Virus record (IMG/VR): IMGVR_UViG_3300020576_004709
Span: 1 to 64,000 of that record
Source of the DNA: a virus
Taxonomy: Duplodnaviria > Caudoviricetes
Direction: 5' to 3' (one strand)
DNA length: 64,000 nt
The translations under genes were made by a program, and so were the position numbers. The first letter of the stretch is position 1. Each line of letters opens with the position of its first letter. Shown here piece after piece: positions 1,818-63,120 of this stretch. The notes under the pieces are model-generated. The model did no database searches and was not told where the DNA came from. It saw nothing but the letters and a program-made list of their open reading frames with translations.

Positions 1818-1897
1818 CCCGTACACTCCTCTTTCGAGATTGGGATTGCCGGCCGGAATTGGCCGGCGATTCCGTTTTACGATCCCGATAGTTATCT

Positions 1898-2893
1898 TCA
1901 ATCGTAAACCGTTCTCTCGATGGTCCGCTCGCCGACCACCTGTTCGACGGGCGGGCCTTTCAAGGTCTCGACGTATTGGATCGTCTTGACGACTCCCTGT
2001 TCTTGGCGTCCGATCCGACGGTGGGCCAAAACCCCCGAGTTCCGAACTTGCTTGAATTTGAAGTTTTCCGCGAGCGCGGTCACGAATTGCGGGTAGACCG
2101 AGAAGTCGACCGGCAACGCTTCCGGGTTGTGACGGCAGTTCGAGTGCCGGGCAGCAGCGTCGGTTCTCTGGCGGGCCTGAAGGATGTCCAGATAAGAAAG
2201 CCGGAAGGCCAGCGATTCGGCGTCGTTGACGTCTTTGGATTCGGCAGCGTAGATCGGCGTGCGGAGGAAGCCACCGGCATTTGGATCGGACCACGAACGG
2301 CTATCGAATCCGCTGTTGAAGATCAATTGGGGAATGGTGATGTCCGATGTGAAGAAGTACGTCCACGGCCAGTTTTCGTTGTGGGGCAACTGGATCAACC
2401 TCGGCCAGAGCGGAATGCGAACCGCGAGCGGTTGATCGGCGAGGATCGAGCGCATCAGACCATCGATCATGTTCGAGTGTCCGGGGTACGATTGGAACTC
2501 GACCGAGCGGACGAACCCGTAGTAGAACTCGAACCGAACACGGAGTCTCAGGTATTTCTCTTTCGCCCTGCGGTAATCGACCGTGACGTACCGCCCTTCG
2601 CGCGAACTCGACCAAGTCTGGAACGTGTTCCTTCGAATCTCCTCGGCGAACGTCGGCATCAACCTCTCGCCGTTGTCGTTGATGAACTGGTACGTTGCCT
2701 TCGGCATCGTGTGCATCGGCTTTTCGGTCTTGTCGCCGCACGAGAGCTTGATGAACTCGACCGTCGCCCAATCGAGGTCGTTCTCGGCCGAGCCGTCTTC
2801 CAGCCATCCCGCGTAGGCGAGCCGACCGATCTTGTCGAGGGGATTGTCGATCATTTGAGCGTAAAACGCTGTGCGGTCCTGTTCACGCGACAT
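1898..2893 (-). CDS. TIGR02996-domain protein (planctomycete repeat-companion domain)
   Basis: N-terminal FYAQMIDNPLDKIGRLAYAGWLEDG resembles the P.DD..RL.YADWL.E motif; later FYYGFVRSV resembles the FRRGFV motif of this family. Confidence 0.7.
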   Translation of the reverse strand: MSREQDRTAFYAQMIDNPLDKIGRLAYAGWLEDGSAENDLDWATVEFIKLSCGDKTEKPMHTMPKATYQFINDNGERLMPTFAEEIRRNTFQTWSSSREGRYVTVDYRRAKEKYLRLRVRFEFYYGFVRSVEFQSYPGHSNMIDGLMRSILADQPLAVRIPLWPRLIQLPHNENWPWTYFFTSDITIPQLIFNSGFDSRSWSDPNAGGFLRTPIYAAESKDVNDAESLAFRLSYLDILQARQRTDAAARHSNCRHNPEALPVDFSVYPQFVTALAENFKFKQVRNSGVLAHRRIGRQEQGVVKTIQYVETLKGPPVEQVVGERTIERTVYD

Positions 2894-3242
2894 AGGTCGG
2901 CTCCTTCGGGTACCAGGCGTTCATGTGGCGGGCGACGATGATCGCGTGACACGACGGTGTTGCGACCGGCTTCCGGCAATCCCAATCGGCGCACCAGCAC
3001 GCAAAGGGCAACCGGCCGAACTCGGTATCCGCCCGGAGGTCGCGAACGACCCGCGCGAGGTCTGGCAAGGCGATGAACCAGGCGTCGAACTTCTCGGCCC
3101 AATCGGGATCTTCGCGGCGGAATGGGTTGCCGAGTTCGTGGGCGGCAAGTCCCGCCCAGGCACGTCCCAAATAGAGGAACGTGCCGGGCGCGATCGAGTG
3201 CGGCCAGCGGCCGCGCAGGGTGATGACGTGGTAGGCGCTCAA
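2883..3242 (-). CDS. DUF4326-like protein
   Basis: YLGRAW...LGNPF...FACWC...CHAIIVA; TTG start overlaps the upstream TGA. Confidence 0.7.
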   Translation of the reverse strand: MSAYHVITLRGRWPHSIAPGTFLYLGRAWAGLAAHELGNPFRREDPDWAEKFDAWFIALPDLARVVRDLRADTEFGRLPFACWCADWDCRKPVATPSCHAIIVARHMNAWYPKEPTYVA

Positions 3243-3526
3243 CGCCGTGCCCGTTCGTCGAGGGGAGTCGCGTCGGCCATCCGCTTCCGGCGGGCCTTGA
3301 TGTCCAGGACCATCGCCGCGAGGTCGGAACTGTCGTTCTGGACGAAGGCGACGCGGGAGACGGTTGGGACGTCGGTGACTTGGGAACCCTCGACGACCTT
3401 GCCATCGTGGAAGGTGTCCATGTAGAGCGCGCCGCACGAGGCGCACCAGAAGTTCCGACGTGTGCTCGCGCCGGTCTCGACGTGGCCGATTCCTTGAAGC
3501 GTGCAGTTGCAGACGGTACAGGGCAT
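3239..3526 (-). CDS. zinc-ribbon hypothetical protein
   Basis: MPCTVC...WCASCG, two CxxC pairs; AAGGAG upstream. Confidence 0.65.
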   Translation of the reverse strand: MPCTVCNCTLQGIGHVETGASTRRNFWCASCGALYMDTFHDGKVVEGSQVTDVPTVSRVAFVQNDSSDLAAMVLDIKARRKRMADATPLDERARR

Positions 3527-10076: not shown

Positions 10077-10156
10077 CGGTCCGATCCTCCCGTTCGAATC
10101 GCGGTCGCCGCCGGGGAGTCCGGCGGGCGAATTTGCGATCCTAAAGATTGCGATTC

Positions 10157-46479: not shown

Positions 46480-47124
46480 TCAATCTCCCTGCCAGATCCA
46501 CGCAAGGCACCGCGCCCGGACGTGGACGGTGACGATTTCGACCGTGGTTTTCGAGAACCCGACGAACCGGCGGGACGGCACTTCGACCCGCTTCGTCATG
46601 TAGAACTGCACTTCGAGCAACGTGAGCTGAATCCGCGTCGGCCGGATTCCCTCGGGAACCGGGCCGATCAAGACCCCGCTGACGCCGCCCTTGCGAATCA
46701 TCGGGATGAGGCGCCCGTCGAAGTTTCGCGGACTCTTCGCCCGCTTCGCCTCCACCGTGGCCGGGATGCACAGGAACTTCGCGTTCACCGGCACCACGAC
46801 CCCGCCGTAGTGCAACAGCCTGGCCCCGATCCGGTTCGTCCCGACCGTCAGCGACGTCGCGTTGGCCACCGCGACGATCGACGCCATCAGCCGGCCGGTA
46901 TCGCGGAGGGCCTCGCCGAGTTCGGCTTCGCCCGGCCGCTTGAACTTCAACCTCGGCCACGGATCGCCGTCCGGCGTCTTCTGCTCGACGAAGCACTGTT
47001 TCACGCCGGCCACCGCGACCGGCTCGCATTCCTTGAGGGCCTCGGCCATGACGTTGGCCATGCGGCCCCGGTCGGCCAGACGGCGACAGGCCCGCGCGAG
47101 TTGCTGGAACGTGAGGGCCGCCAT
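46480..47124 (-). CDS. phage virion morphogenesis / tail completion protein (Mu gpG-like)
   Basis: F.EQ.TPDG.PW..LK...L.DTGRL.ASI...VGTN...A...H.GG...P.R.F.G.S. Confidence 0.88.
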   Translation of the reverse strand: MAALTFQQLARACRRLADRGRMANVMAEALKECEPVAVAGVKQCFVEQKTPDGDPWPRLKFKRPGEAELGEALRDTGRLMASIVAVANATSLTVGTNRIGARLLHYGGVVVPVNAKFLCIPATVEAKRAKSPRNFDGRLIPMIRKGGVSGVLIGPVPEGIRPTRIQLTLLEVQFYMTKRVEVPSRRFVGFSKTTVEIVTVHVRARCLAWIWQGD

Positions 47125-48210: not shown

Positions 48211-49308
48211 TCACGTCCAAGTAATCGAGGCGTGGCCCTCGGGGTGAATCGGAGCCGGCCCGCCGTTGAACCCGACGTCGCCGATAACCTGCGGCGGCAT
48301 CAACCGGTACTGGACGAGGGTGTACATCCCGGACGAGATCGCGTTCTTGTTCGCGTACTCGTCCGTCCGGCTGTCGATGCCGCCGCCCGGCAGCGCCTCC
48401 TTCGCCATCGAGCGGGTGAACTGCCACTGGCCGAGCGGCTCGCCGTCCTTGCGCTTGCCCGCCCAAATGACGCGCCGGGTCGTCAACTGCCGCACCCAAT
48501 TCGCCGGGTCGCGGGAGAGCGCCTTCGTCGGGTAGTAACCGGCGTCGTAAAGCTCGATCTGCGGGAGATCGTAGCTGCCGAGAAGCTGGTTCACCTTCTT
48601 GAGGCCGTTGACCGTGTCCCCGCCGTCGATCCGAATCTTGTTGGAGATCTGGTCGATCTTGAGGAACTCCGCGAGCGAGAGTTCGTTCATGTACAGCTTC
48701 GATTCCGGTCCGAAGTTGGTCGACCGGCCGGCCTGGAGTTGGGCCTTCCACGTCAGCAGGTCGAAGATCGGCACCGCCGTCGCCGCCGTGCTCCAAGTGA
48801 TCGTCGGCACGAACTTCTGGCGGGTCGAGTAGTTCTCGATCGTGTCGCCGTAGGTCACGCTCCCGTCCGCCGAGCGGGCGATGAACGTCCCGTCGAGCAT
48901 GAGGCTGATGATGATGTCGCGGATCTCCACGACCGTCTGGCCGAGCAGGTTGCCCATGCCGAGCATGACGAGCGTCGAGATCCCCATCGGGTCGCTGGCC
49001 GTGCCCGGCTGGCGCTGTTCGAGCATCTGCTTCTCGGTCAGGACGAACCGAGACCCGAAGAGGCCGGGGTCCATCGAGAACCGCTTGTAGCCGGGGATCG
49101 GAGTGACCGTCGGCTCGCCGTCGAGTCCGCGCAGTTCCATCTTCCCGAACGGGTTTTCCTGTTGCTCCCAAATCACCGAGAATTCCTTCTGGTAGGTCGA
49201 AGGAAAGAGTTGGATGATCGGGTCGCTTTCCATCTCGGCCTGGAGGAGTTCCGCCGCGACGAGTTGCGTCGAGAAGCTCCGCGTCAGGTTCAGGGTTTCG
49301 GCCGGCAT
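48211..49308 (-). CDS. major capsid protein (Phage_cap_E/HK97-fold type)
   Basis: 365 aa, follows protease and decoration genes; E......L..G.F...G...W.T...A.P..DL..W. Confidence 0.85.
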   Translation of the reverse strand: MPAETLNLTRSFSTQLVAAELLQAEMESDPIIQLFPSTYQKEFSVIWEQQENPFGKMELRGLDGEPTVTPIPGYKRFSMDPGLFGSRFVLTEKQMLEQRQPGTASDPMGISTLVMLGMGNLLGQTVVEIRDIIISLMLDGTFIARSADGSVTYGDTIENYSTRQKFVPTITWSTAATAVPIFDLLTWKAQLQAGRSTNFGPESKLYMNELSLAEFLKIDQISNKIRIDGGDTVNGLKKVNQLLGSYDLPQIELYDAGYYPTKALSRDPANWVRQLTTRRVIWAGKRKDGEPLGQWQFTRSMAKEALPGGGIDSRTDEYANKNAISSGMYTLVQYRLMPPQVIGDVGFNGGPAPIHPEGHASITWT

Positions 49309-51712: not shown

Positions 51713-52615
51713 TCACCATGCAAGGGGAATCTCGCCCGTCCGTTGAAGTTCCCGCTTGCCGGGCGCGAGACGGTTCCAAATCAACTTGTGGATCGGCGTC
51801 CAGTTGCACCGGCAGTTGCACACGTCCTTCGCTTCGAGTCCCCGCACGACGACGAACGGCGTCGAGATCGGGTAGTACAGCCCGTCCTTCTCGCGGTGCC
51901 ACGGCCGGGTGCGCTCGTCGCGGATCGCGTGGTATTGCCACGCGGGGAACTCGGCCCGCATCCCGCTCGCGTTCAACTCGTCCTGCTGCCCACGGTTGAG
52001 CGCGTCCATGACGTTCGTGCGCACGACCATCTGCGAGTATTGCGAGTGCAGGGGCGAAATGCCCGCGTCCTTGAGGATGCCTTCGACCGTCAGCGTGGCA
52101 TCCTGGCCGCCGACCAGCTCGTTCGCGATGGCCTGCTGGATCTTCTTCGTGACGACGTCCTCCGTCGTGACCGCGACGTTGAACACTTCCCGCTGGATCC
52201 CCTGCGCGTAGTTGTTCGGGTTCTGCCCGACGCGCGGCACGAGCGAGGAGAAGTACCGGATGGCCGCGTGCGGTTTCAGCGGCCGCAACTCGGCGACCGC
52301 CTCGGCGAACTCCGGCAACGTCACGTTCCCGGTCGAACCGTAGAAGCGGGTTCGCCCGACGAGGTCGCTCGGCACGATGACGGCCTCGACGACTTCGTTG
52401 AGCGCCGCCCGATCCTTCGCGTCGAAGATCCAGCCGAGGTTCCGAAGCACCTGGCCGGACGCGACCCGCTTCTTCAAGGCGCCTTCGACGATCGTGCTCA
52501 GCGCGATCGACCCGAACGCGACTGCCTCGGCCAGCCAGTCGGCGATCGACCGGCCGCCGGGTCCGGGCACGGTCTCGGGGTTCGGCGCGTCGGGCGGTCC
52601 TGCGTACTCGTTCAC
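51713..52615 (-). CDS. head morphogenesis protein (SPP1 gp7/Mu gpF family)
   Basis: VVRTN...A.N.G...WQY.AI.D.RTRP.H...DG.YY...CNCRC; GTG start overlaps the giant ORF stop. Confidence 0.9.
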   Translation of the reverse strand: MNEYAGPPDAPNPETVPGPGGRSIADWLAEAVAFGSIALSTIVEGALKKRVASGQVLRNLGWIFDAKDRAALNEVVEAVIVPSDLVGRTRFYGSTGNVTLPEFAEAVAELRPLKPHAAIRYFSSLVPRVGQNPNNYAQGIQREVFNVAVTTEDVVTKKIQQAIANELVGGQDATLTVEGILKDAGISPLHSQYSQMVVRTNVMDALNRGQQDELNASGMRAEFPAWQYHAIRDERTRPWHREKDGLYYPISTPFVVVRGLEAKDVCNCRCNWTPIHKLIWNRLAPGKRELQRTGEIPLAW

Positions 52616-55600
52616 TTCGATTTCTCCGCTTCGGGGGTTCCTTCGGCCGGCTTCTTGTTCTCGCCCTTCAACTCCTCTTCGAGCTTCTTGAGGGCCTCCA
52701 TCTTCTGCTTCAACTCGGCGGCCTTCGGGAACTCCTTGCCGATGCCCGCCTTCGTCCGTGCGATGTCGGCCTTCGCGCGGGCGATGTCGTCCTTCGCGGC
52801 GTCCGCGCCCTTCTGCAAGTTCCGGGCGACGTACTCGATCGACTTCAACGACTCGCCGACACCGAACCGGCTGTCGTGGTGTTTCGATTCGAGGTAGAGC
52901 TTTTCGCCCCGCCGCATGAGTTGGAGTCCCTTGAACTGCCCGACCCGCACGCCGATCCCGTAGGGGTCCTGCACGTCCTTCAACGCCTGTTCGAGGGCCT
53001 TTTCCGCCTCGGGCCGATCGGCGTAGTCCTGGCCGTTCAGGTGGATCTTGAAATCGACGTGCTTCTCCATGTCCCCCGCGTCCTTCGCGAGGTTCTCGGC
53101 ATGGCGCTCGAGCATCGGCAAGTTCCGCTCGCCAGACGCGACCGCCGCCTTGAGCTTGTACTGTTCCGAATCGTGGCGCTTCCGACCCGCGTGCAGGTTC
53201 TTCAAGTCCTCGTCGAGCTGGACCTTTTGCAGGACGCGGGGGTCGCCCGACGCGGCGGCCATCAACTGCTCGGGGGTGAGCTGCGCCGCGTCCTCTTCGC
53301 CCACGGCCCGCTGCGTCGTCCCGCCCGGCGTCATGACCTGTTTCACGAACCGGAGCTTGTTGCCGATGATCTGCCAGAACGTCCGGTCGAGACTGCCTTC
53401 CGTGACGTAGCTGACGATCTTCACCTGCTGCTCGTGCGCGGCCTTCGAGGGGTCGTTCATGTTCCCCTGACGCCATGCCCGCCCGTTCCGCTGCTCGACG
53501 CTCGCCGGGGTCCACGGCACGTCCAAGTGGTGCAGCGCGTACAGCTTGTCCTGGACGTTGACCCCGGTGCCCATCTTCTTCGAACTGCCGATGGCGACGA
53601 GGATCTTGCCTTCCCGCATCGCCTGCATCGCGTTTTCCTTCTTCTCGCCGGCGAGCTTGGAGAAGTCCGCGATCTTCTCGCGCGGGATGCCGCCCTTGAC
53701 GAGCTTCTCGATGATGTCGCCGTAGAGGTTGAAGGAGTTCCCCGCGTTCACGTCCCCTTCCTCGCCCGGCTTGTCGTACACGTCGGCGAGGCCGAGGTTG
53801 TCGTCGTCCCCGCCCTTCTCGCCAATGTCGTTGACCCCGATGTCGGAGAAGATCATTTGCGTCCGGCCCGGATGTTCCTTGTTGATCTTCAAGACGTTGC
53901 GGACCGCGAGGTTCGTCTTGCTGTCCGGGTGGTCGACCGCGTTGGGATCGAGGAGCCGCATGTCGAGCGCCCCCTTCCGCCCGTCCGTGCAGATGACGAG
54001 CATGTTGTCCTTACCGCCCCGCTTCAAGTTCTGGGCGCGGGTTTGGAGGCTGTCCATCAGGCGGGCGATCTCCGGCGTCTTCGGCGCGGTCTCGTAGGAG
54101 TCCTCGCGCTTCGGCCGGATGAGGGACGCCGAGCCGTCGGGGTTCTTCATCGCGTCGGCCCGCTGGATGTCCAGCATTTGCCGGCTCATCTGCATGAGTT
54201 CCGGGATGTTGGTGAACTTCGCGAAGCGGGATACCGGCTTGTAGTCGCCGGCGACGGTGAACTCCATCTTCGTCTGCACGTCGCCGAAGGTGGACGCCCA
54301 CGCATCGAACGTGTGCAGCCCGCGTTCCTTCAACTCCTGCGGTTGGAGGTAGCGCTGCATGTTGTAGAGTTCGGCCATCGTGTTATCGACCGGGGTGCCC
54401 GTCGCGAACACGACCCCCCGGCCGCCGTTGTTCTCCATCAACCACTTCGTGCGCATGTACATGGCCGTGGCCTTCGCGCTGCGGCCGGTCGGAACCCCCT
54501 TCAAGCCCTGCTGCTTCGTGTAGCACGGCAGCGACTTGTAGTTGTGGGCCTCGTCCACGAAGATGTGGTCGATGCCGGTCTCTTCGAAGAACACGGCGTC
54601 GTCCTTGCGGCTCGGGTCGAGCGCCTCTTGGAGCTTGGCCTCGAGGTTCTTCTTGGCGTTCTCCAGCGACGTCTGTGCCCGGCTCTGTTTGCCCTTCGGC
54701 TCGTTCGCCATCATTTCGGACCGCACGGCTTCGAGTTCCTTCAACTCGTCGCGAATGTGTTCGGCGACGGTCTCCGGCTTCATTTGGAGCATGTCGAGGT
54801 TGTCGTGCGTCATGATGACCATGTCGTAATCGCCGGTCGCGATTTGGCTGATCGTCTTCTTCCGGTTCGCCTTGTCGAAGTTGTCCACGGTCGAGAGGAT
54901 CTTGGCCCCCGGATACAGGTGTTGCAACTCGCGCGTCACCTGCTCGATGTTCGCCTTGAGGCACGCGATGGCCGGCTTCTTCGCGAGGCCGAGCCTGCGG
55001 AGTTCCATCGCGGCCGCACCCATCGTATAAGTTTTCCCGGTCCCGACTTCGTGGCCGAGTAGCCCCTTGCCCGTCGTCACGACTTGCCACACCGCGTTCG
55101 CCTGGTGGTCGCGCAGCTTCACGCCGGGGTTCATGCCGGGGAATTGCAGGTGTTGGCCGTTGTACTTCATCGGCACGACGTTGTTGAAGTTGTCGTTGTA
55201 GTGCCGGTGCAGTCGGTCCCGGCGCTCGTCGTCGGTCCACAGCCATTCCTTGAACTTGTCCTTGATCTCCTGAATCTTGGCGTTCGCGTTGTCGGTCTCT
55301 TCCCGGTTCACGACGGTCGATCCGTCCGAAATCTTGTCGGTGACGCGCACGCTCGTGTTGTTCAGCGCGGCCTCGAACAGTTCGTCGAACGACTTGCGGG
55401 GCGTGGCCCAAACCTCCGTCGCGGTCTTGGTGTTGGCGACGTACCGCTTGCCCTCGTTCGAGTAGTTCGCGATCCACGCGCCGGAGTGCGGCAAGTAGCT
55501 GATCTTGAAGTGGTGGTTCTGGCCGCCGAGCAACGACGCGGCGAACTCCGAGACGTCGGACGACGGCACCCACGGCACGCCGAGCTTGGCTTCGATGTCC

Positions 55601-58600
55601 TCGTGCGACACGTCCTCGGGCTGAACCTTTTCGAGCGCCGCCACGTTCGCGGCGAACTTCGGGTCGGTCTCGGCCGCCGCCCGCGCCATGGCCAGCTTCC
55701 GCCGGACGTTCCCCGAAAGGTACTGGTCGGCGGGTTGCCACCCGGCCGACGGGTCGGAGTAGGCGAGGCCGGCATCGACCAAATGCTTTTCGACCGCCTC
55801 GCGCGGCAGCGACGTCAGCGCCGCGATCCGGTCCACGTCCACGCCGCCGGATTCGTGGAGCACGACGCCGAGCGCCTCGGACGGGTCGTTCGCCTTCTCC
55901 ACCTTCGACACGGCCTTGATCGTGTCCTTGTGGAAGATGTCGGCCTTCTCGAACTTGCCCGTCTTCGGGTTGGCCTTCTCCATCGCCAGCAGGATCGGCG
56001 AATCGGGGTCGGTTCGGAACGCCGCCTTGTTGCCCTTCGCGTTGAGCGGTCCGTGTTCCTTGACGAATTGATCGTAGACCGCGTTCAGCATGGCCCGCGC
56101 GGCGGTCGCGTCGCCGCCCGCGATCTGCGTGTTGAGCACGTCCCGCATCGCGTCCCGCACGGTCATGTGGGCCTGGATCTTCGCCGCGACCGCCGGCTTC
56201 ACGTCGGCCTGCTCAACCATCTGGTCGCCCTGGCGGATGTAGACCTTCCCGCCGTCCACCTTGAACCCGCCCGCGCGAACCTCGCCCGGTGCCGGGGTTG
56301 CCGCCGGTCCCGCGTACCGCTCCTTCGGCGCGGTCGCCGCCGAGTAGAGGCCCTTCGGCAGACGGTCGATCGCCGCGGCGAGCCGCTGTTCGTAGTCGGC
56401 CGTTCGCGTGACGTTGACGCTGTTGCCCTGGTACATGGAACCGGTTCGGTCCACCGTGCCGAGCACCTGGCCGGGATTCTCCGCGAAGTAGCGGTTGATC
56501 GGGATGGCCTCGCCGCCGGCCGGGTCGGGAACGGTCGTCGTCTCCATCCAGTTCGTCGCGGACGGCGGTTCGCCCGGCAACCGCTTCCGCAGGATGAGCA
56601 TGTCGGTCACGACGTCGGTGCCGGCGTTCGACTTGTGGGCACCGGACGGGAAGCGGATCGCCGAGACGAGGTCGCACGTCTTGCCGAGTTGCTGGCGGAT
56701 GGACGGGTCCATCTTGTCCAGCGTGCCAGTGCTCGTGATGTGCATCACGAGGCCGCCGGGCCGCACGAGGTCGGCCGATTTGAGGAAGAAATAATCGTGG
56801 ATGTTCGCGCCGTGCTTGTTGTACTTCGGGTCGTGGACGCGGTAGTCGCCAAACGGCACGTTGGAAGCCACGAGATCGTAGAAGCCCTCGGGTGATTGGA
56901 GCTTCTCGAACCCGTGGACCTTCACGTTCGCGTTCGGGTAGAGGTGGCCGAGCATCCCGCCGGTCGTCGGGTCGAGTTCGACGGCGGTCGTCTTCGTGTT
57001 GCCCGCGATGTGCGACGGCATCATGCCGAGGTAGTACCCGATCCCGGCCGACGTTTCGAGAAATCGCCCGCCCTTGAAGCCGAGGCGGTCGGCCATCTTC
57101 CAGTGGGCGTCGACCACTTCCGGGGCGGTGTAGTGCGCGTTGAGCTTCGAGGCGCTCGCCGCGTCGTACTCTTCCGGGGTGAGGAGTCCTTCGAGGATCT
57201 CTCGTTCCTTGCGCCACTCGTTGCCGTACCGGTTGAACAGGCCGGGGAACTGCCCCCACCCGACGTACCGCGACATGACTTGCTGCTCTTCCGGGGTCGC
57301 GGTGGTGCGGCCCTCGGCCTTGATCGCTTGAAGGGTCTTGATCGCCGCGACGTTGGCCGCGAACTTCGTCCGCGCGCCGCCCGTCGCGAAGTCCTTCGAC
57401 GTGTACTGGAAATTGCCGGTGCCCGCGTCCGTCGGGTTCTCCGGCGTCGAGGGCTTGGCTACCGACTGTTCAGCGGGAGATTGAGCAACAACTTCCGGGT
57501 TGACTCCATCTGGTCGGACATCCCGGCTTCCACTTCCCACGCCTCGGGCCGGGCGACTTCGTCCGGCGGGGTCGGCAGAAATTGACTCAGGACGAACTCT
57601 CTCGCCGCCGACGGGTCGTTGCCCGCCGTCTCCATCCGGTCCAGCAGGTCCATCGCTTCCCAAGTCTGCGACTGTAGGTACGGCTCGAAGTCGCCCGACG
57701 TCTGCATTTCCGCCGCCAGTTCCGGGAAGTTCCGCAGCAGGTGCGCCCGGAGCATCTGTTCCCACTGGTTGCCCGGCTGGTAGCCCTGGTTCGCCGCGTC
57801 GCGGGCCTTCGTTTTCCAGTTGGTTTCGCTGCTCATCGGATGCCGCCGGGGTTTGAGGTTCTGACCCTATGCTATTCGTAATACCCTGCCCATCGAGTAG
57901 TTCGCCCATCTTCGGGGAATCTTTGACCTTCCGCGCGGTCGGTACCTTCTCGCCCTTGCCCGCGATCGGCTGGCCGGACGCCTGATCTACTTCCTGAACT
58001 TCGTTCCCGTTCACGCGGTACGGCTTGCCGTCCACCGTCCAGAGGTTGCCCCGCGACTTCTTGATCTTCGCCCCATCGATCGGGATGCGCTTGTTCTTCA
58101 TCCACGCGCCGAGGACGTGCGCGTCGCTCATGTTCGACGTGGGCAAGTGCGGGTTCTCGCCCGCGTGCGCGTTCGCGTAGCCGTGCTTGAACGCCTCGCT
58201 CGGGTTCGTCGGGGCGGCCGTCAGCCCGTGATCCTCGTCGCCCGCGTAGCCCGCGGCGAAACTACCATCCGCGTCCTGCTTCACCTGGAACTTGCCGGAG
58301 TTGTCCCCCATCTGCGGCTTCGTCTCGCCCGGCTTCGGCATCGCGGATTCCATGCCGCCGTGCAGTTCGAGGGCCTTCTCCCGCGTGATCGGCTTCCACT
58401 TCACCGCGAGGGTCTTTTGGACCGGCGCGGCCTGGCCCGCCGGAACGCCCGCCGTCGCCGGCGGCTCCGCTGGCTTCGCGCCGCCCGGCGCGGCCTCGCG
58501 CCCGCCCGCGCCGCCGGCCGGCTTGCCGTCCTTGTCGAACTTCAACGAGCCGAGCGTCACTTGGCCCGGACCGGCGGCCGCATTAACTCCCAACGACTGA

Positions 58601-61600
58601 CCATCAACTCCCAACGAAGCGGGCTTTTCTGTCGTCGGCTGCGCGTCGGCTGATTCCTTTGCGACCGGGTAGCCGTCTGCGGCCTTGCCAACGCGGTACC
58701 ATTCGCCGTCCATCTTGAACCGGCTGCCCGCCGCGCGCTGCTCGATATTCAATCCGTGCTCGGCGGCGAACTCCTCGGCTTTCTGGTGGTCGAGTTCCCG
58801 GTGCGCGTCGTCGAGGCTGAGTTGCTGGCCGGCCTTCGGCGAGGCGGCCGGGAGTTTGATGAGGTCGCCGAGGAGGTTGCGCGTCATGCCGGGCGGCGTC
58901 GGCTTGTCGCCCGCGTCCGGTGCCGGCGGGATGGCCTCGCCGGGGTTCGGGTCTTTTCGTGCCGGGGAAACCGATGCGGGTTGATCGTCGGCGGATTGGC
59001 CTCGGGCCTTCGCGTACTCGGCCCGCTGCTTGTCGCTGAGGGAGTTCCACGGAGTCTTGGCGAGGGTCTCGGCATACTCGTCGTCGTGGCCCGCGTTGGT
59101 CCAGTGCTCCAAGCGATCCTCGTGCGCGTCGGCCTGGTAGTCGTCGGAGGTGAGGTTCTTCTTGCCGAACGCTTCGTCGTTGAGATCGGGCGCGGCGGGC
59201 TTTGGCTGCTCGGCCGGCTTCGCGAGGAAGTCGCCGAGGATGTCGTCCTGCTGCTTCGATGCCGGTTTGGATTCGGGCTTTGCAATCTCGGCATCGAGCA
59301 AGTCGTTCGGAGCGTGCGGCGACGCGCTCAGACCTGGGGCTTGATTTGGGCCTGCTGGCTGAGGAGTTCCCGCGTCCCCCGTTCCGCCCGCTGCTTTTGC
59401 TCCGGCGTCATCGCCCACGGCCGGGGCACCGGCGGGGGTTGTGAGGGGGCGGCCGAGTTCGGCGTCGATGGCGGCGTTGATGCCGGCAAGGGACTGCTGC
59501 TTGACATGATCCTTCTCCGTTTGCGACTTCGCCGTCGCGAGCTGGATGGCGGCCACCTTGACCGCCTGGGAAATCGGGCCGCTGCGGTTCTGCAAGCGGT
59601 TGAACACTTCGAGGCGGTACGCGGAGTCCTGCTTCCGCTTCTGGTTCTCGTCGATCGCCAGCACGTTGCCGGCACCGGCCACCCGCCCCGCGCGGGCCTC
59701 GCTGGACACCGCCGCGTAGTCGCCGACCGCCTGGGAGAGCTTTCGCCCGGCGAACGACTGGATTTCAACCTCCTGGTCGAACGTGTTCTTCTCGTTCTCG
59801 AAATCGCCGAAGAGGTTCGTTTCCTTCTCGGTGTAGCTTCCCGCGTCGGCCATCTTCCGCGCGGCGGTCTCGATCTCGGAACGGTTCCATTCCCGTTCGC
59901 CGTTCTCGGCCCGGCGCTCGAGCTTCTGGAACAACTGCTCTTGCCTCGCGTGGTCGGGGAGATTCTTCGCCACCGCGACGGCGGTTGCCTCGTCGAGTTG
60001 GCCGTTCGTGAGCCGCTGGAACGACCGCTCGTTCAGGTTCGCGAGCGCGACCGCGTCTTGGGCCATCTTGCCCGAAACGCTCAGGCCGGCGTTGCGCAGG
60101 TGCTCGATGCCCTCGCCGGTGTCGCGCAGGTACTTCGCCGCGTCGATGGCCGTGCCACGCCCCTCGGCGATGTTGGCCAGCGCGCCGCGGCTGCGGGCTT
60201 CGACCGCGTCCTTCGCGTCGATGTACCGGACGTTCATCGTGTCCTGGCCGGTCCGCTCGGCGAGGCCGTGCCGGTTGTGGCCGTTGACGACCACGTCTTG
60301 ACCGCTCGCGGGATCCCGCCACGCGAGGATCGCCCCGCCGAGTTCCGGGTTCCACTTCGCGGCGCCTTTGAGTTCGCTGCCGATCCCGCCCTCGTCGACG
60401 TCCATCACCTTGTACTGGAACCGCTTCGGGTCGCGTACCAAACTCGACGTCGGCACGGTGTAGACGTCCGACGGCGACGGTACCGACGGCGTACCGTTCG
60501 GTCGCTTGGCCACTTCGCCGGACTGGACGGCGGCAACCGGTCGATCGACCGACGCGCCGGCGGCCTTCGTCTCGGGTCGCAACCACTGCTGCATGGTCGA
60601 TTCGGTCGCGCCGGCGGTCGCGTCCTTGCGGTACGGCTCGACTTCGTCGCCCTTCAAGAGCTTGTCCGACTGCTCGGTCCCGTAGGCCGCGCGCGGGCTG
60701 GCCCCGTGCATTCCGCCCGTCATGCCCTTGATGACCGCGTCGGCCATCTGGTGCCGGCTCATGCCGAACGTGTTGCCCCATTGGGTGTGCTTCTCGACCA
60801 TGTCGGCGAGTTCGCCCCTCGGGATCTTGTGGAGGTTCTCTTGGAGATCCTTGACGTGCTCGCCGGTGAACTGGCCCTGTCCGTGCGCGGCGGCCGCGCG
60901 CTGCACCGCTTCCTGGTGCGGCGAGAACTGCGGCCCCTTGTCCTTGCCCGCGTGCGGGTCGGGGATGTAGCCGGCCTGGATGAGCGCGTGCGTCTGTAGC
61001 GATTGCACCATCGCGTCCCGCCGGCGGCCGTTGGTGAACCGCGTCGCGAGGCGGTCGCGCACCCGCTTCAACTCGTTCACGTTCAGCGCGTCGAGATGGC
61101 CCGCCAACTGGCGGAACGTCTTCGGAGAAGCCTTGTCGTTCATCACGTCGCCGGCCAGCTTGATCGCGTCGGCCTTCGACGCCTGGGTCTTGTCGTATTT
61201 CTGCTTCGACTCGGTCGCCGCCTGCGCGTAGTGCTGTTCGCCGCCCTGCTGCGCGTGGAGCGCGGCCTTCGCCTTCGGGCCGTACAGCGTCTTGCCCGCG
61301 TGGTCGCCCATCCCGACCGCCTTCACGTTGCCGGTCGAAGTCTGCTGCGCCATCCACATGAACGCGCGGGGCTGCTGCCCCGCCTGCATCGCGTCCATCG
61401 AATCGCCGGCCGAGTTGTCCCCGCTGAGCATGTCCTGCAAAACGTCGATCGCGTGCCCGAAACCGTGCTGGTGCCCCTCCATCTGGGCGCGTAGCCGCAG
61501 GTTCATGATCGCGAGCAGGATCGCCCGCGACATTTCGGGGTTGCCGTTAACCTGGCGTTCGCCCGGTGCCGGATCGGTGTCGACTTCGGTGCCCTCGCCC

Positions 61601-63120
61601 GACGCGCCTTCGAGGTCGGTATCGTCCTCGTCCTCGACGTCCTCGTGACCGCCGAACGCCGTGACGCCCTTGACCGGCTGGCCGTCCTTGCCGGGGATGC
61701 CGGCCTTCGGATCGAAATCCGGCTTGCCGCCGCCGGCGGGCGGTGCGGTCGGAGCGCCCGGCACCGGAGCGCCGCCCATGCCACCCATTCCGCCCATGCC
61801 CGGAAACCCGCCGACCGACATGCCGGACATGGCCGCGTTCTGGCCGACGAGTTTGTCGGCCGCGTTCTTCGGCGATTCGAGGCCGAGCGTCTGTTGCACC
61901 TGCGCGAGGGACAGGCCGTGCATTCCGAGGAGGTCTTGGCCGAGCTTGAGCACGTTGCCCCGCTTCAAGCGCTGGTCGGGCGACATGCCGCCGAGGAGCA
62001 CGCGGGGAAGCCCGATGTCCCGGTCGGTGTAGTTGAGCTTCATCAACGGCTTGACGATCTGGTAGCGGATGACGTTACACACTTCCATCGCGAGCATCCA
62101 TTCGCCGAGTTCCGTGACGCCCCGCGCGACGGTCGAATCGCCGATGTCCGATCCGCTCTGCCCTTCGAGGAACGGCAGGTAGGCCCACCGCGTCGCCGTG
62201 TAGACTTCCTTCCGCCAGTCGTCGAGGGCCGACTGAAACGTCTCGCTCGTCCCGGTCGCGAAGTCGAGAACTTCAATCGAATCTTCCGGGGCGCAGTTGA
62301 TGTAACCCATCGACCGGGCGCGTTCGAGGAGATCGGCCGCGACGAGCCTGGCTTCCGGGTCGCTGAACTTGCCGACCAAGAACGGCCCGGTGAAGTTCTG
62401 GATCATGATGAGCCGGAGCTTCGTCGTGCTCTCGATCATCGTCGCCGCCCGCAACGCGCCGCGGAACATGCTGCGGCCATACGGGTTCTTGAAGAGCGAT
62501 TGGTAGCTGAAGAGCGTGAACTTGCCGGGGTCGAACAGGATGCCGGAGTTTGCCCGGTTCGCGCGGATGCCCACGACGTTTCGGAATGCGTCGATGTCCA
62601 TGTTGACGTAGTTGACGTCGATGGGATCGAGCGCCGCGAGACAGAGGTATTTCCGCCACGAACCCATTTCCGGATAGTCAAGCACGATTTCGTTGAGGCC
62701 GTAGCCGTCGATGAGCGCACCGGTCGCGATGTTCTTGATGACCGCGTGCCAACCGCCGTTCGCGCATTCGTCGATCGCCGCCTTCGCGTACTCCGCGGCC
62801 TCCTTGTTCTTCGGGTGCCGGTCGTCATACGGCAACACCTGCGGCTCGTAGGAACAGATCCGGGCAATCATCGAGTCGAACGCCGAAATCACCGTCGGCT
62901 CGCGAAGCATCAGTTCCCGGTACTTCTGGCGCTTCTCCGGCGTTTCGAGCGTGAGGTTCTCGAAGCTGTTCGGGTTCGTGAAGAACGACCGCATCCACTC
63001 CGTTCGGAACTGCCGGCGCTGGAACTCGGTCACGTCCGGCATGACCAGTTGCCGGCCGCTCGGCCCGGTGCCGTACTGGTTGAGCTTGTCGTTGGAGTTC
63101 GCGTACAGCGTCGAGAACAT
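52612..63120 (-). CDS. 3502-aa fusion: DUF935 (Mu gp29-type) portal + ParB-like domain + N6-adenine methyltransferase + SNF2 helicase (DarB-like polyvalent protein)
   Basis: Portal: ALIDGYG..EI, NPYG..M.R.A, NF..PF.VGK, G.......E.....A; ParB-like: RDPKRFQYK...W....G.I.AW...VVNGH.R; MTase: FLETSAG.G, DLV.SNVPFG, LV.AIR.PSGA; helicase: HEVGTGKT, VDEAHNYK, ATGTPV.N, W.P....QR.GR..RQGN. Confidence 0.9.
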   Translation of the reverse strand: MFSTLYANSNDKLNQYGTGPSGRQLVMPDVTEFQRRQFRTEWMRSFFTNPNSFENLTLETPEKRQKYRELMLREPTVISAFDSMIARICSYEPQVLPYDDRHPKNKEAAEYAKAAIDECANGGWHAVIKNIATGALIDGYGLNEIVLDYPEMGSWRKYLCLAALDPIDVNYVNMDIDAFRNVVGIRANRANSGILFDPGKFTLFSYQSLFKNPYGRSMFRGALRAATMIESTTKLRLIMIQNFTGPFLVGKFSDPEARLVAADLLERARSMGYINCAPEDSIEVLDFATGTSETFQSALDDWRKEVYTATRWAYLPFLEGQSGSDIGDSTVARGVTELGEWMLAMEVCNVIRYQIVKPLMKLNYTDRDIGLPRVLLGGMSPDQRLKRGNVLKLGQDLLGMHGLSLAQVQQTLGLESPKNAADKLVGQNAAMSGMSVGGFPGMGGMGGMGGAPVPGAPTAPPAGGGKPDFDPKAGIPGKDGQPVKGVTAFGGHEDVEDEDDTDLEGASGEGTEVDTDPAPGERQVNGNPEMSRAILLAIMNLRLRAQMEGHQHGFGHAIDVLQDMLSGDNSAGDSMDAMQAGQQPRAFMWMAQQTSTGNVKAVGMGDHAGKTLYGPKAKAALHAQQGGEQHYAQAATESKQKYDKTQASKADAIKLAGDVMNDKASPKTFRQLAGHLDALNVNELKRVRDRLATRFTNGRRRDAMVQSLQTHALIQAGYIPDPHAGKDKGPQFSPHQEAVQRAAAAHGQGQFTGEHVKDLQENLHKIPRGELADMVEKHTQWGNTFGMSRHQMADAVIKGMTGGMHGASPRAAYGTEQSDKLLKGDEVEPYRKDATAGATESTMQQWLRPETKAAGASVDRPVAAVQSGEVAKRPNGTPSVPSPSDVYTVPTSSLVRDPKRFQYKVMDVDEGGIGSELKGAAKWNPELGGAILAWRDPASGQDVVVNGHNRHGLAERTGQDTMNVRYIDAKDAVEARSRGALANIAEGRGTAIDAAKYLRDTGEGIEHLRNAGLSVSGKMAQDAVALANLNERSFQRLTNGQLDEATAVAVAKNLPDHARQEQLFQKLERRAENGEREWNRSEIETAARKMADAGSYTEKETNLFGDFENEKNTFDQEVEIQSFAGRKLSQAVGDYAAVSSEARAGRVAGAGNVLAIDENQKRKQDSAYRLEVFNRLQNRSGPISQAVKVAAIQLATAKSQTEKDHVKQQSLAGINAAIDAELGRPLTTPAGAPAVGDDAGAKAAGGTGDAGTPQPAGPNQAPGLSASPHAPNDLLDAEIAKPESKPASKQQDDILGDFLAKPAEQPKPAAPDLNDEAFGKKNLTSDDYQADAHEDRLEHWTNAGHDDEYAETLAKTPWNSLSDKQRAEYAKARGQSADDQPASVSPARKDPNPGEAIPPAPDAGDKPTPPGMTRNLLGDLIKLPAASPKAGQQLSLDDAHRELDHQKAEEFAAEHGLNIEQRAAGSRFKMDGEWYRVGKAADGYPVAKESADAQPTTEKPASLGVDGQSLGVNAAAGPGQVTLGSLKFDKDGKPAGGAGGREAAPGGAKPAEPPATAGVPAGQAAPVQKTLAVKWKPITREKALELHGGMESAMPKPGETKPQMGDNSGKFQVKQDADGSFAAGYAGDEDHGLTAAPTNPSEAFKHGYANAHAGENPHLPTSNMSDAHVLGAWMKNKRIPIDGAKIKKSRGNLWTVDGKPYRVNGNEVQEVDQASGQPIAGKGEKVPTARKVKDSPKMGELLDGQGITNSIGSEPQTPAASDEQRNQLENEGPRRGEPGLPAGQPVGTDAPGAPAAELPGTGGGNADVGRLRAVPTVADLGSDGPAGPDGDGGQRPVGGERVRPESISADPAGRSRPARGVGSGSRDVRPDGVNPEVVAQSPAEQSVAKPSTPENPTDAGTGNFQYTSKDFATGGARTKFAANVAAIKTLQAIKAEGRTTATPEEQQVMSRYVGWGQFPGLFNRYGNEWRKEREILEGLLTPEEYDAASASKLNAHYTAPEVVDAHWKMADRLGFKGGRFLETSAGIGYYLGMMPSHIAGNTKTTAVELDPTTGGMLGHLYPNANVKVHGFEKLQSPEGFYDLVASNVPFGDYRVHDPKYNKHGANIHDYFFLKSADLVRPGGLVMHITSTGTLDKMDPSIRQQLGKTCDLVSAIRFPSGAHKSNAGTDVVTDMLILRKRLPGEPPSATNWMETTTVPDPAGGEAIPINRYFAENPGQVLGTVDRTGSMYQGNSVNVTRTADYEQRLAAAIDRLPKGLYSAATAPKERYAGPAATPAPGEVRAGGFKVDGGKVYIRQGDQMVEQADVKPAVAAKIQAHMTVRDAMRDVLNTQIAGGDATAARAMLNAVYDQFVKEHGPLNAKGNKAAFRTDPDSPILLAMEKANPKTGKFEKADIFHKDTIKAVSKVEKANDPSEALGVVLHESGGVDVDRIAALTSLPREAVEKHLVDAGLAYSDPSAGWQPADQYLSGNVRRKLAMARAAAETDPKFAANVAALEKVQPEDVSHEDIEAKLGVPWVPSSDVSEFAASLLGGQNHHFKISYLPHSGAWIANYSNEGKRYVANTKTATEVWATPRKSFDELFEAALNNTSVRVTDKISDGSTVVNREETDNANAKIQEIKDKFKEWLWTDDERRDRLHRHYNDNFNNVVPMKYNGQHLQFPGMNPGVKLRDHQANAVWQVVTTGKGLLGHEVGTGKTYTMGAAAMELRRLGLAKKPAIACLKANIEQVTRELQHLYPGAKILSTVDNFDKANRKKTISQIATGDYDMVIMTHDNLDMLQMKPETVAEHIRDELKELEAVRSEMMANEPKGKQSRAQTSLENAKKNLEAKLQEALDPSRKDDAVFFEETGIDHIFVDEAHNYKSLPCYTKQQGLKGVPTGRSAKATAMYMRTKWLMENNGGRGVVFATGTPVDNTMAELYNMQRYLQPQELKERGLHTFDAWASTFGDVQTKMEFTVAGDYKPVSRFAKFTNIPELMQMSRQMLDIQRADAMKNPDGSASLIRPKREDSYETAPKTPEIARLMDSLQTRAQNLKRGGKDNMLVICTDGRKGALDMRLLDPNAVDHPDSKTNLAVRNVLKINKEHPGRTQMIFSDIGVNDIGEKGGDDDNLGLADVYDKPGEEGDVNAGNSFNLYGDIIEKLVKGGIPREKIADFSKLAGEKKENAMQAMREGKILVAIGSSKKMGTGVNVQDKLYALHHLDVPWTPASVEQRNGRAWRQGNMNDPSKAAHEQQVKIVSYVTEGSLDRTFWQIIGNKLRFVKQVMTPGGTTQRAVGEEDAAQLTPEQLMAAASGDPRVLQKVQLDEDLKNLHAGRKRHDSEQYKLKAAVASGERNLPMLERHAENLAKDAGDMEKHVDFKIHLNGQDYADRPEAEKALEQALKDVQDPYGIGVRVGQFKGLQLMRRGEKLYLESKHHDSRFGVGESLKSIEYVARNLQKGADAAKDDIARAKADIARTKAGIGKEFPKAAELKQKMEALKKLEEELKGENKKPAEGTPEAEKSK
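57459..57836 (-). CDS. nested gene (TnpV-like, 125 aa) in a different frame of the giant ORF
   Basis: MSSETNWKTKARD...W..M.RAHL..NFPEL.AEM..SG...YL...W.A.DL; GC-rich third positions are in this frame rather than the host frame. Confidence 0.7.
   Translation of the reverse strand: MSSETNWKTKARDAANQGYQPGNQWEQMLRAHLLRNFPELAAEMQTSGDFEPYLQSQTWEAMDLLDRMETAGNDPSAAREFVLSQFLPTPPDEVARPEAWEVEAGMSDQMESTRKLLLNLPLNSR
59328..59411 (-). CDS. possible nested micro-ORF (27 aa) in the giant ORF
   Basis: MTPEQKQRAERGTRELLSQQAQIKPQV*, nearly all codons end in G/C. Confidence 0.4.
   Translation of the reverse strand: MTPEQKQRAERGTRELLSQQAQIKPQV

Follow-up and report, generated by a model that had tools for sequence, protein, structure and literature searches.

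A TnpV-like gene probably nested, in another frame, within the linker of a giant portal–methyltransferase–helicase gene of a tailed phage

Why would a stretch in the middle of a very large phage gene carry the codon usage of a reading frame other than the one in which that gene is read? The question arises in a 64,000-nucleotide stretch of DNA (here called the window), positions 1 to 64,000 of IMG/VR record IMGVR_UViG_3300020576_004709 (Duplodnaviria; Caudoviricetes), a 73.8-kb metagenome-derived virus genome with direct terminal repeats. A single giant open reading frame (ORF) on its minus strand joins a portal to a methyltransferase–helicase module, and a first-pass annotation, made from the sequence alone, had noted a complete 125-amino-acid ORF nested on the same strand in another frame, just before the methyltransferase. 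That annotation took the small ORF for a still functional tnpV-like gene, captured together with a methyltransferase–helicase cassette and read through into the giant protein, and proposed a profile search and frame-specific substitution rates as checks. Our analysis indicates that 57459–57836 is probably (roughly 0.85, judged from comparative sequence data) genuinely dual coding, with one frame encoding a small folded protein and the giant frame a tether.

The small ORF is present as described, with an ATG at 57836–57834, 125 codons and a TAG at 57461–57459, in the +1 frame relative to the giant ORF and with stop codons at both of its borders. In the giant frame, the G+C content of third codon positions (GC3) is about 0.9 throughout, except over residues ~1735–1885 (~57920–57470), where it drops to 0.44. 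Across the same bases the +1 frame has G+C contents of 0.67, 0.44 and 0.86 at the first, second and third codon positions, which is the usual codon pattern of this genome, and the host-like codon bias attributed to the nested ORF is thus confirmed. In relatives L004–L006 codon-position G+C likewise switches to the +1 frame over the small ORF, just before the methylase module. The giant frame reads here as the low-complexity linker that had been claimed for it: residues 1762–1887 hold 33% Gly and Pro versus 15% elsewhere in the protein, 14% hydrophobic residues versus 26%, and 78% Gly, Pro, Ala, Arg, Ser, Thr, Asp and Glu versus 55%. Its position directly before the methyltransferase domain is equally clear, as alignments of homologs to the giant protein have a sharp onset at residue ~1884, three residues ahead of the nested stop at ~1887.

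Conservation of this arrangement was assessed in a survey of 160 methylase–helicase loci (80 viral, 80 bacterial), fetched by alignment of the methylase N-terminus, in which the three forward frames upstream of the methyltransferase module were searched with a profile of the small family. The first pass matched 49 loci, in the +1 frame in every one, and the offset between the small-ORF core and the methylase core in these loci ranges from -15 to 348 nt with the frame held constant, so every indel there is a multiple of three. Iterating the profile raised the number of loci with a homolog upstream of the module to 103 of 160, in the +1 frame in 101 of the 103, and this concentration in one frame is itself a control on false positives of the iterated profile. 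In 100 of the 101 +1 loci, including those of genomes with 35–38% G+C, no stop interrupts the methyltransferase frame from beyond the start of the small ORF to its end. Computed from the off-frame stop density of each locus, the chance of such openness has a median of 0.013 per locus (~0.001–0.06 in low-GC genomes) and a joint log10 probability of -115 over 50 sequence clusters; the median expected openness for the +1 frame is 0.03. Three relatives with a 50–51% identical methylase part each carry a homologous ATG-started +1 ORF, and among relatives the nested ORF varies from 89 to 139 codons with a variable stop position. One of these (L004:3830-4115, 95 amino acids) stops about 30 codons early, and its +1 DNA beyond the stop still reads LLVNLPKSNH, like the C-terminal tail in the window; the persistence of this reading indicates that the tail overlaps sequence constrained by the methylase frame. 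The exceptions in the survey are L119 and L120, with a family match in frame 0 or +2 far upstream, and L155, where the methylase frame has a stop beyond the small ORF; extra copies, decay of the locus or errors of assembly may account for them.

Selection distinguishes the two frames. In 14 pairwise comparisons by the Nei–Gojobori method (NG86), the frame-specific ratio of nonsynonymous to synonymous rates (dN/dS) was 0.28–0.69 for the nested frame and 1.05–2.62 for the giant frame, and the third positions of the nested frame were the most variable in 13 of the 14 pairs. The proposed test therefore gave purifying selection on the nested frame in every pair, and the contrast argues that selection reads the amino acids of the nested frame, with the giant frame barred only from stops and frameshifts. 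The linker sequence is unconstrained, yet it stays stop-free and in phase, and its apparent likeness to the linkers of homologs arises because the other frame is conserved.

The product of the nested gene, P0001 (125 amino acids, 14.3 kDa, isoelectric point 4.5), belongs to an acidic family with a median isoelectric point of 4.8. The proposed profile search, run as an exhaustive HMMER (phmmer) search of 1.84 billion representatives, returned 107 homologs, 41 of them with E<=1e-10 and nearly all 85–150 amino acids long with end-to-end alignment. The three homologs inspected (four loci) lie on contigs shorter than 2 kb, in which, as in the window, no stop interrupts the methylase frame along the small ORF; the small ORF is reported by gene callers only where the giant ORF is truncated. 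Less sensitive searches returned nothing: a word-indexed protein search with P0001 at near and longer lengths and a tblastn search of GenBank phages gave no match, which reflects their sensitivity limit given the 107 homologs found by phmmer, and no relative was found by scanning viral, metagenome and genome contigs with the single sequence of P0001 or by a first locus scan with giant residues 1601–2300. P0001 matched no family in Pfam (E<=0.01) or PHROGs. An AlphaFold2 model built on a 60-sequence alignment predicts a compact six-helix fold with a predicted local distance difference test score (pLDDT) of 93.2 and a predicted template modelling score of 0.75, in agreement with the helical pattern noted in the first-pass annotation. 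Foldseek of the model against the PDB gave nothing at E<=0.001, and the best fold match in BFVD, at E 0.027, is Q8W6J4_2, a large-protein fragment. Sequence-profile matches in the PDB to designed pentatricopeptide (PPR) repeats were disregarded as short repeated stretches, and weak Imm51 matches (3 of 60 family members, best E 0.002) were set aside as not significant. A feature search of the Atlas yielded no lead of 0.9 or above; one of the leads was a cluster in which 26% of the members carry TnpV.

Table 1. Features of the window bearing on the nested gene and on the giant gene that contains it.
Feature	Position	Strand	Basis or remark
Nested tnpV-like gene (protein product P0001)	57459..57836	(-)	ORF call and codon signature
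Giant ORF, 3502 amino acids, polyvalent DarB-like virion protein fused to portal	52612..63120	(-)	Portal_Mu, phrog_10089 and phrog_21 matches
Portal_Mu domain, giant residues 67-413	61882..62922	(-)	PF06074, 83.3 bits, E 2.6e-23
ParB-like part of large portal fusions, giant residues 878-1222	59455..60489	(-)	phrog_21 positions 1010-1353, E 3.9e-89
N12-class methyltransferase and SNF2-type helicase module, giant residues ~1882-3491	52648..57477	(-)	Profile and homolog alignments
Giant-frame stretch without normal codon bias, Gly/Pro/Arg/Asp-rich linker, residues ~1735-1885	57470..57920	(-)	GC3, composition, dN/dS, openness
AT-richer segment, 45% G+C	57868..57900	(-)	Upstream of nested ATG; open in giant frame
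Weak Shine–Dalgarno-like GGCGG, 6 nt before nested ATG	57843..57847	(-)	Duplex energy -5.0 kcal/mol

Signals for independent translation of the nested gene are visible across the family. A conserved ATG, replaced by GTG in some integrative and conjugative elements (ICEs), opens the nested ORFs a few codons ahead of a conserved Trp. Pairing of the 16 nt upstream with the anti-Shine–Dalgarno sequence averages -6.7 kcal/mol at 22 nested starts, considerably stronger than the average of -2.5 kcal/mol for 898 ATGs internal to the same loci (p = 1.8e-9), and a duplex energy of -6 or lower is reached at 59% of the nested starts versus 7% of the internal ATGs. The nested gene thus has a translation start signal of its own, given by the conserved ATG or GTG and the Shine–Dalgarno-like motifs; the relatives displayed no conserved start codon where the methylase module begins. 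The composition of the AT-richer segment upstream, which had been put forward as an internal promoter, stands, with 15 of 33 bases G or C (45%) versus ~66% locally; its reading as a promoter is unsupported, as a scan of 57200–58200 for sigma-70-like consensus promoters gave 0 sites. The same region holds one terminator-like hairpin, on the plus strand and within the expected count, and the upstream G+C dip in relatives is slight, at 3–5 points. The segment has TAG stops in the +1 and +2 frames and none in the giant frame, and the +1 TAG at 57869–57867 bounds the nested ORF. Together, purifying selection on the nested frame only, the 107 homologs, the confidently predicted fold, the Shine–Dalgarno-like motifs and the openness of both frames in 100 of 101 loci support the earlier suggestion that the small gene has stayed functional.

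Several observations count against dual coding and have to be set beside this evidence. The giant ORF contains seven further +1-frame stop-free runs of at least 135 codons, which places length alone within chance; 6% of 125-codon +1 windows in genes of this phage are open, so the length of the nested ORF is not rare; and 65% of 125-codon windows lying over a real gene in the frame relation of the giant frame are open as well, which puts the openness of the giant frame here at chance level. The Shine–Dalgarno-like motif of the window is weaker than the mean of nested starts, the promoter scan was empty, and a nested dN/dS of ~0.5 denotes moderate constraint only, with dS distorted by the overlap. 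In the window alone the openness of both frames is within chance, while across relatives both are kept open in nearly every locus, and it is the composition and the comparative data, not ORF length, that carry the case for the nested gene.

Among the other explanations, recoding would place the TnpV-like segment within a larger polypeptide by programmed frameshift, either as a TnpV–methylase–helicase fusion, with a shift of -1 close to where the nested ORF ends, or as a fusion of the N-terminal module to TnpV. The strictly fixed frame relation (101 of 103) fits such a mechanism, as do the large-protein fragment that is the best BFVD match and the Sinorhizobium phage PBC5, in which the upstream ORF and the TnpV-like segment share a frame (described below). 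We nevertheless consider recoding improbable, because nested ORFs have a conserved ATG or GTG with Shine–Dalgarno-like motifs and variable stops, no canonical X XXY YYZ heptamer was seen in frame on reading the nested ORF of the window by eye, PBC5 may hold a sequencing frameshift, and free-standing TnpV genes exist (PMC3158075). A shade less credible is that three separate genes (portal–ParB, the small gene and the methylase–helicase) are present and that the 3502-amino-acid ORF is a GC-rich artefact whose linker is not read by ribosomes; stops would then be rare in the giant frame because its first position falls on the third position of the real gene in GC-rich DNA. The 65% openness in that frame relation, the giant-frame dN/dS above 1 and the GTG and TTG codons present in the linker frame speak for this explanation. 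It leaves the upstream part without any giant-frame stop to end it and the methylase module without a conserved start, and it is at odds with the continuity in 100 of 101 loci, low-GC genomes included, with indels between the two cores that are always multiples of three, and with the recurrence of portal–methylase fusions within the family.

It is very unlikely that the giant frame alone is functional and the small ORF a chance open frame or a productless relic. The further +1 ORFs of such length and the lack of a Pfam or PHROGs match to P0001 would suit that account, and against it stand a canonical codon signature in the nested frame and not the giant frame, the homologs, a model with pLDDT 93, nested dN/dS below 1 in 14 of 14 pairs and a conserved start preceded by Shine–Dalgarno-like motifs. 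The lowest probability of all goes to an assembly or sequencing error in which two compensating indels shift an in-frame domain. The record is metagenome-derived, which is what makes such an error conceivable, but the same layout recurs in more than 100 independent assemblies and stops bound the +1 ORF on both sides. An identical 30-kb contig was found in run X1, though this is possibly the source of the record itself, and in a contig from another study (X4, listed as groundwater), which spans 1797 bases and departs from the record at 80 of them, positions 57000–58450 are free of indels.

With dual coding as the preferred explanation, the family to which the small protein belongs can be considered. 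A six-frame search of the record with PF14198 (TnpV) gave nothing at E<=1, short of the 27-bit cut-off of the family, and 2 of 60 members of the small family touch TnpV (best E 2.4e-4). Kinship is found through intermediates. By hhalign, the small-family alignment (A1) matches an 87-amino-acid protein of a Verrucomicrobial ICE (L011:3792-4052) with E 2.7e-5 and a probability of 74.5%, and this protein scores 29.4 bits on PF14198, above the cut-off. The iterated profile reaches nested ORFs of Clostridial ICEs, of which 16 of 16 pass Pfam TnpV with a best E of 7.7e-44, and these lie in the same +1 frame within a gene encoding ArdC-N, a linker, methylase and helicase, so that a small helical mobile-element protein occupies the same genomic position. 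A direct hhalign comparison of the small family (A1) with Clostridial TnpV (A4) is weak, at a probability of 4%. The TnpV-like character suggested by the first-pass annotation is therefore upheld through the Verrucomicrobial intermediate and the iterated profile and not by a direct Pfam match, and P0001 appears, on this transitive support, to be a TnpV-like divergent branch rather than a Pfam TnpV member.

Like P0001, the TnpV proteins of Tn4451/Tn4453 and kindred Clostridial elements (PF14198) are ~90–130 amino acids long, helical and carried by mobile elements, and the two have in common the core pattern ..W/G..ML/MR..HL/YL....P.L...L...G.L..YL/HL..; tnpV of Tn4451 is free-standing, whereas the P0001 gene is nested in a phage structural gene. 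The TnpV of Tn4451 was once proposed to be Xis-like (PMC3158075). Our literature search found no experimental function for TnpV. The top structural match to the model is PG0816 of Porphyromonas gingivalis (PDB 2APL; Z 6.2, root mean square deviation 1.6 A over 60 residues; next Z 4.9), which we take to be the type structure of DUF1896 (PF08989). The identity is 17% and the Z-score lies below the level that proves kinship for helical bundles; Foldseek of the model against 2apl_A gave a probability of 0.90 with E 1.1, and the sequence-profile match to the same chain is weak (E 0.28). A PF08989 search of the record gave no match, and 2 of 60 family members touch PF08989. The predicted likeness of fold to PG0816 is suggestive, not proof.

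The age of the overlap can be read from its simplest forms. The tnpV and methyltransferase–helicase cassette is present in ICEs L011 and L012, and differing N-terminal modules have been joined to it in different elements: a portal in the phage of the window, a separate portal gene in L004 and ArdC-N in Clostridia, with the methylase–helicase constant. The smallest architecture occurs in Verrucomicrobial and Chthoniobacterales-type ICEs with TrwC and TraG neighbours, where a conserved M..QQLDLF peptide opens the methyltransferase frame ahead of tnpV and the frame continues across tnpV, which argues that the linker frame is translated. These minimal forms already read through tnpV, so the overlap is old and predates the fusions. 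The earlier proposal of a captured cassette is thus borne out in that such a cassette exists, and the read-through did not arise in this phage. The peptide, M..(D/N)QQLDLF or RQLSLF, occurs in the methylase frame at L011:3719-3790 and L012:3725-3785 and in L103, L106, L122, L134 and L150, with a Clostridial version (L168) reading LQLSLF just past the tnpV overlap; QLDLF/QLSLF fits the QL[SD]LF consensus for binding the beta sliding clamp. Annotated starts of the minimal ICE methylase–helicases (e.g. L011:4001) are probably too far downstream. A different arrangement is seen in phage PBC5 (NC_003324), in which the TnpV-like segment (L001:8171-8485) is in frame with the upstream 2180-amino-acid gp22 and forms its C-terminus, and the methylase frame is open from L001:7939, although the annotation places the start of gp21 at 10147. 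Either this fusion occurs naturally or the record, an old one, contains a frameshift error.

The giant gene itself, with a predicted full-length product of ~380 kDa, has the makeup of a DarB-like polyvalent protein, an N12 methyltransferase and SNF2 helicase core fused to a packaging module. Its phrog_10089 (DarB-like) match reaches 1568.7 bits (listed E-value 0) over residues 1771–3491, SNF2-rel_dom, Helicase_C and ResIII are also matched, and the methyltransferase–helicase module opens with the conserved motif PSTPENPTD..GNFQY. Homologs carry PF28553, PF28554 and PF28555, and Portal_Mu (PF06074) is combined with methyltransferase families also in homologs P0032, P0035, P0039, P0044 and P0045. 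The gene occupies the place of the portal gene, upstream of the major head (48214–49308) and neck (46483–47124) genes. In a relative (L006:1-2212) the gene before the methylase–helicase gene encodes another polyvalent protein, with ART-PolyVal, LAGLIDADG and Zeta_toxin families. Close relatives of the phage are present in runs of other studies, namely X4 and X5; the latter, listed as riverine, holds identical short contigs over 56800–58600 of the window, and nearly all listed differences in the methylase part are at third codon positions. None of the runs listed as holding this DNA is recorded as RNA, and two with a small share, X6 and X7, are guessed to be RNA but are probably DNA. With other runs that hold it labelled groundwater and riverine, the phage is probably of freshwater origin.

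Dual coding suggests a mechanism in which each frame has its own role. The giant frame would provide a flexible Gly/Pro/Arg/Asp-rich tether from the portal and ParB-like packaging part to the methyltransferase–helicase effector, and because it joins these two parts the tether would have to stay stop-free and in phase. The +1 frame would be an independently translated gene for an acidic 14-kDa six-helix TnpV relative, made from an internal ribosome-binding site on the mRNA of the giant gene. This small protein may stay in the producing cell and act on or with the methylase–helicase as a chaperone, adaptor or regulator, and the overlap with the linker would then guarantee that both are inherited and expressed jointly. 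That the small protein is a partner or regulator of the methylase–helicase is a guess on our part, and a doubtful one. A complex prediction of the N-terminal 673 amino acids of the methylase with the small protein scored 0.03 and counts neither way, and Tn4451-type transposons, in which TnpV is a free-standing gene, are not known to carry a methylase–helicase, which speaks against a partner role.

Nested same-strand genes in a shifted frame are known, as with comS inside srfAB of Bacillus subtilis and Rz1 inside Rz of phage lambda, each, like the nested gene here, a complete small gene with its own start lying wholly inside a larger one. Unlike in those pairs, the embedded gene here is the folded and evidently older reading and the containing frame a disordered tether, the embedded ORF is longer (125 codons), and conservation of the pair extends over phages and ICEs from several phyla. 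The arrangement is an unusually widespread variant of a known design, with a folded embedded frame and a tether as the host frame. The fusion of polyvalent proteins to head-packaging modules was described by Iyer et al. 2017 (PMC5512222), and the N12 methylase and SNF2 helicase core with packaging modules of P1 DarB and its polyvalent kin is what the giant ORF contains. In that paper TnpV, overlapping and frameshift have 0 occurrences each, and its one mention of a reading frame concerns neighbouring small ORFs. Literature searches on TnpV with overlapping genes returned nothing relevant, and no published description of the nesting was found. The nested gene is an unreported layer of polyvalent loci; the case also adds a GC-rich, probably freshwater phage clade whose giant gene is fused to a portal, a divergent TnpV-like subfamily invisible to Pfam, and the Verrucomicrobial minimal forms with an overlap older than the fusions.

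In summary, long same-strand overlaps backed by firm comparative evidence are seldom encountered in bacteria and tailed phages, and annotation pipelines are designed to exclude them; a whole family, with 107 representatives called mostly on contig fragments, is for this reason missing from complete-genome annotations. Phages and ICEs ranging from Clostridia to Verrucomicrobia retain the pair, which gives TnpV a strong genomic association with anti-restriction methylase–helicases and illustrates how fusion of modules can come about when an intervening gene is read through in another frame. Cultured carriers exist in the Microcystis phage Mwe-JY07 (PP395639.1), a cyanophage with a nested TnpV-like ORF (L002:8696-8950) within a 4985-amino-acid 'putative DNA methylase' gene, in Faecalibacterium prausnitzii ATCC 27768 (L139:2204-2548) and in Blautia, with Blautia ammoniilytica (L168:2046-2387) as an example. 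We tentatively propose, as a possibility rather than an expectation, that the small protein is a dedicated partner of the injected methylase–helicase, whether as a packaging or transfer chaperone or adaptor or as an inhibitor in the producing cell, and that phages and conjugative elements from several phyla share nesting in the linker as a general design. If so, this design would enforce the co-inheritance of the two proteins and their expression from the same mRNA, and would let delivery modules such as portal, MuF or ArdC be swapped without loss of the partner.

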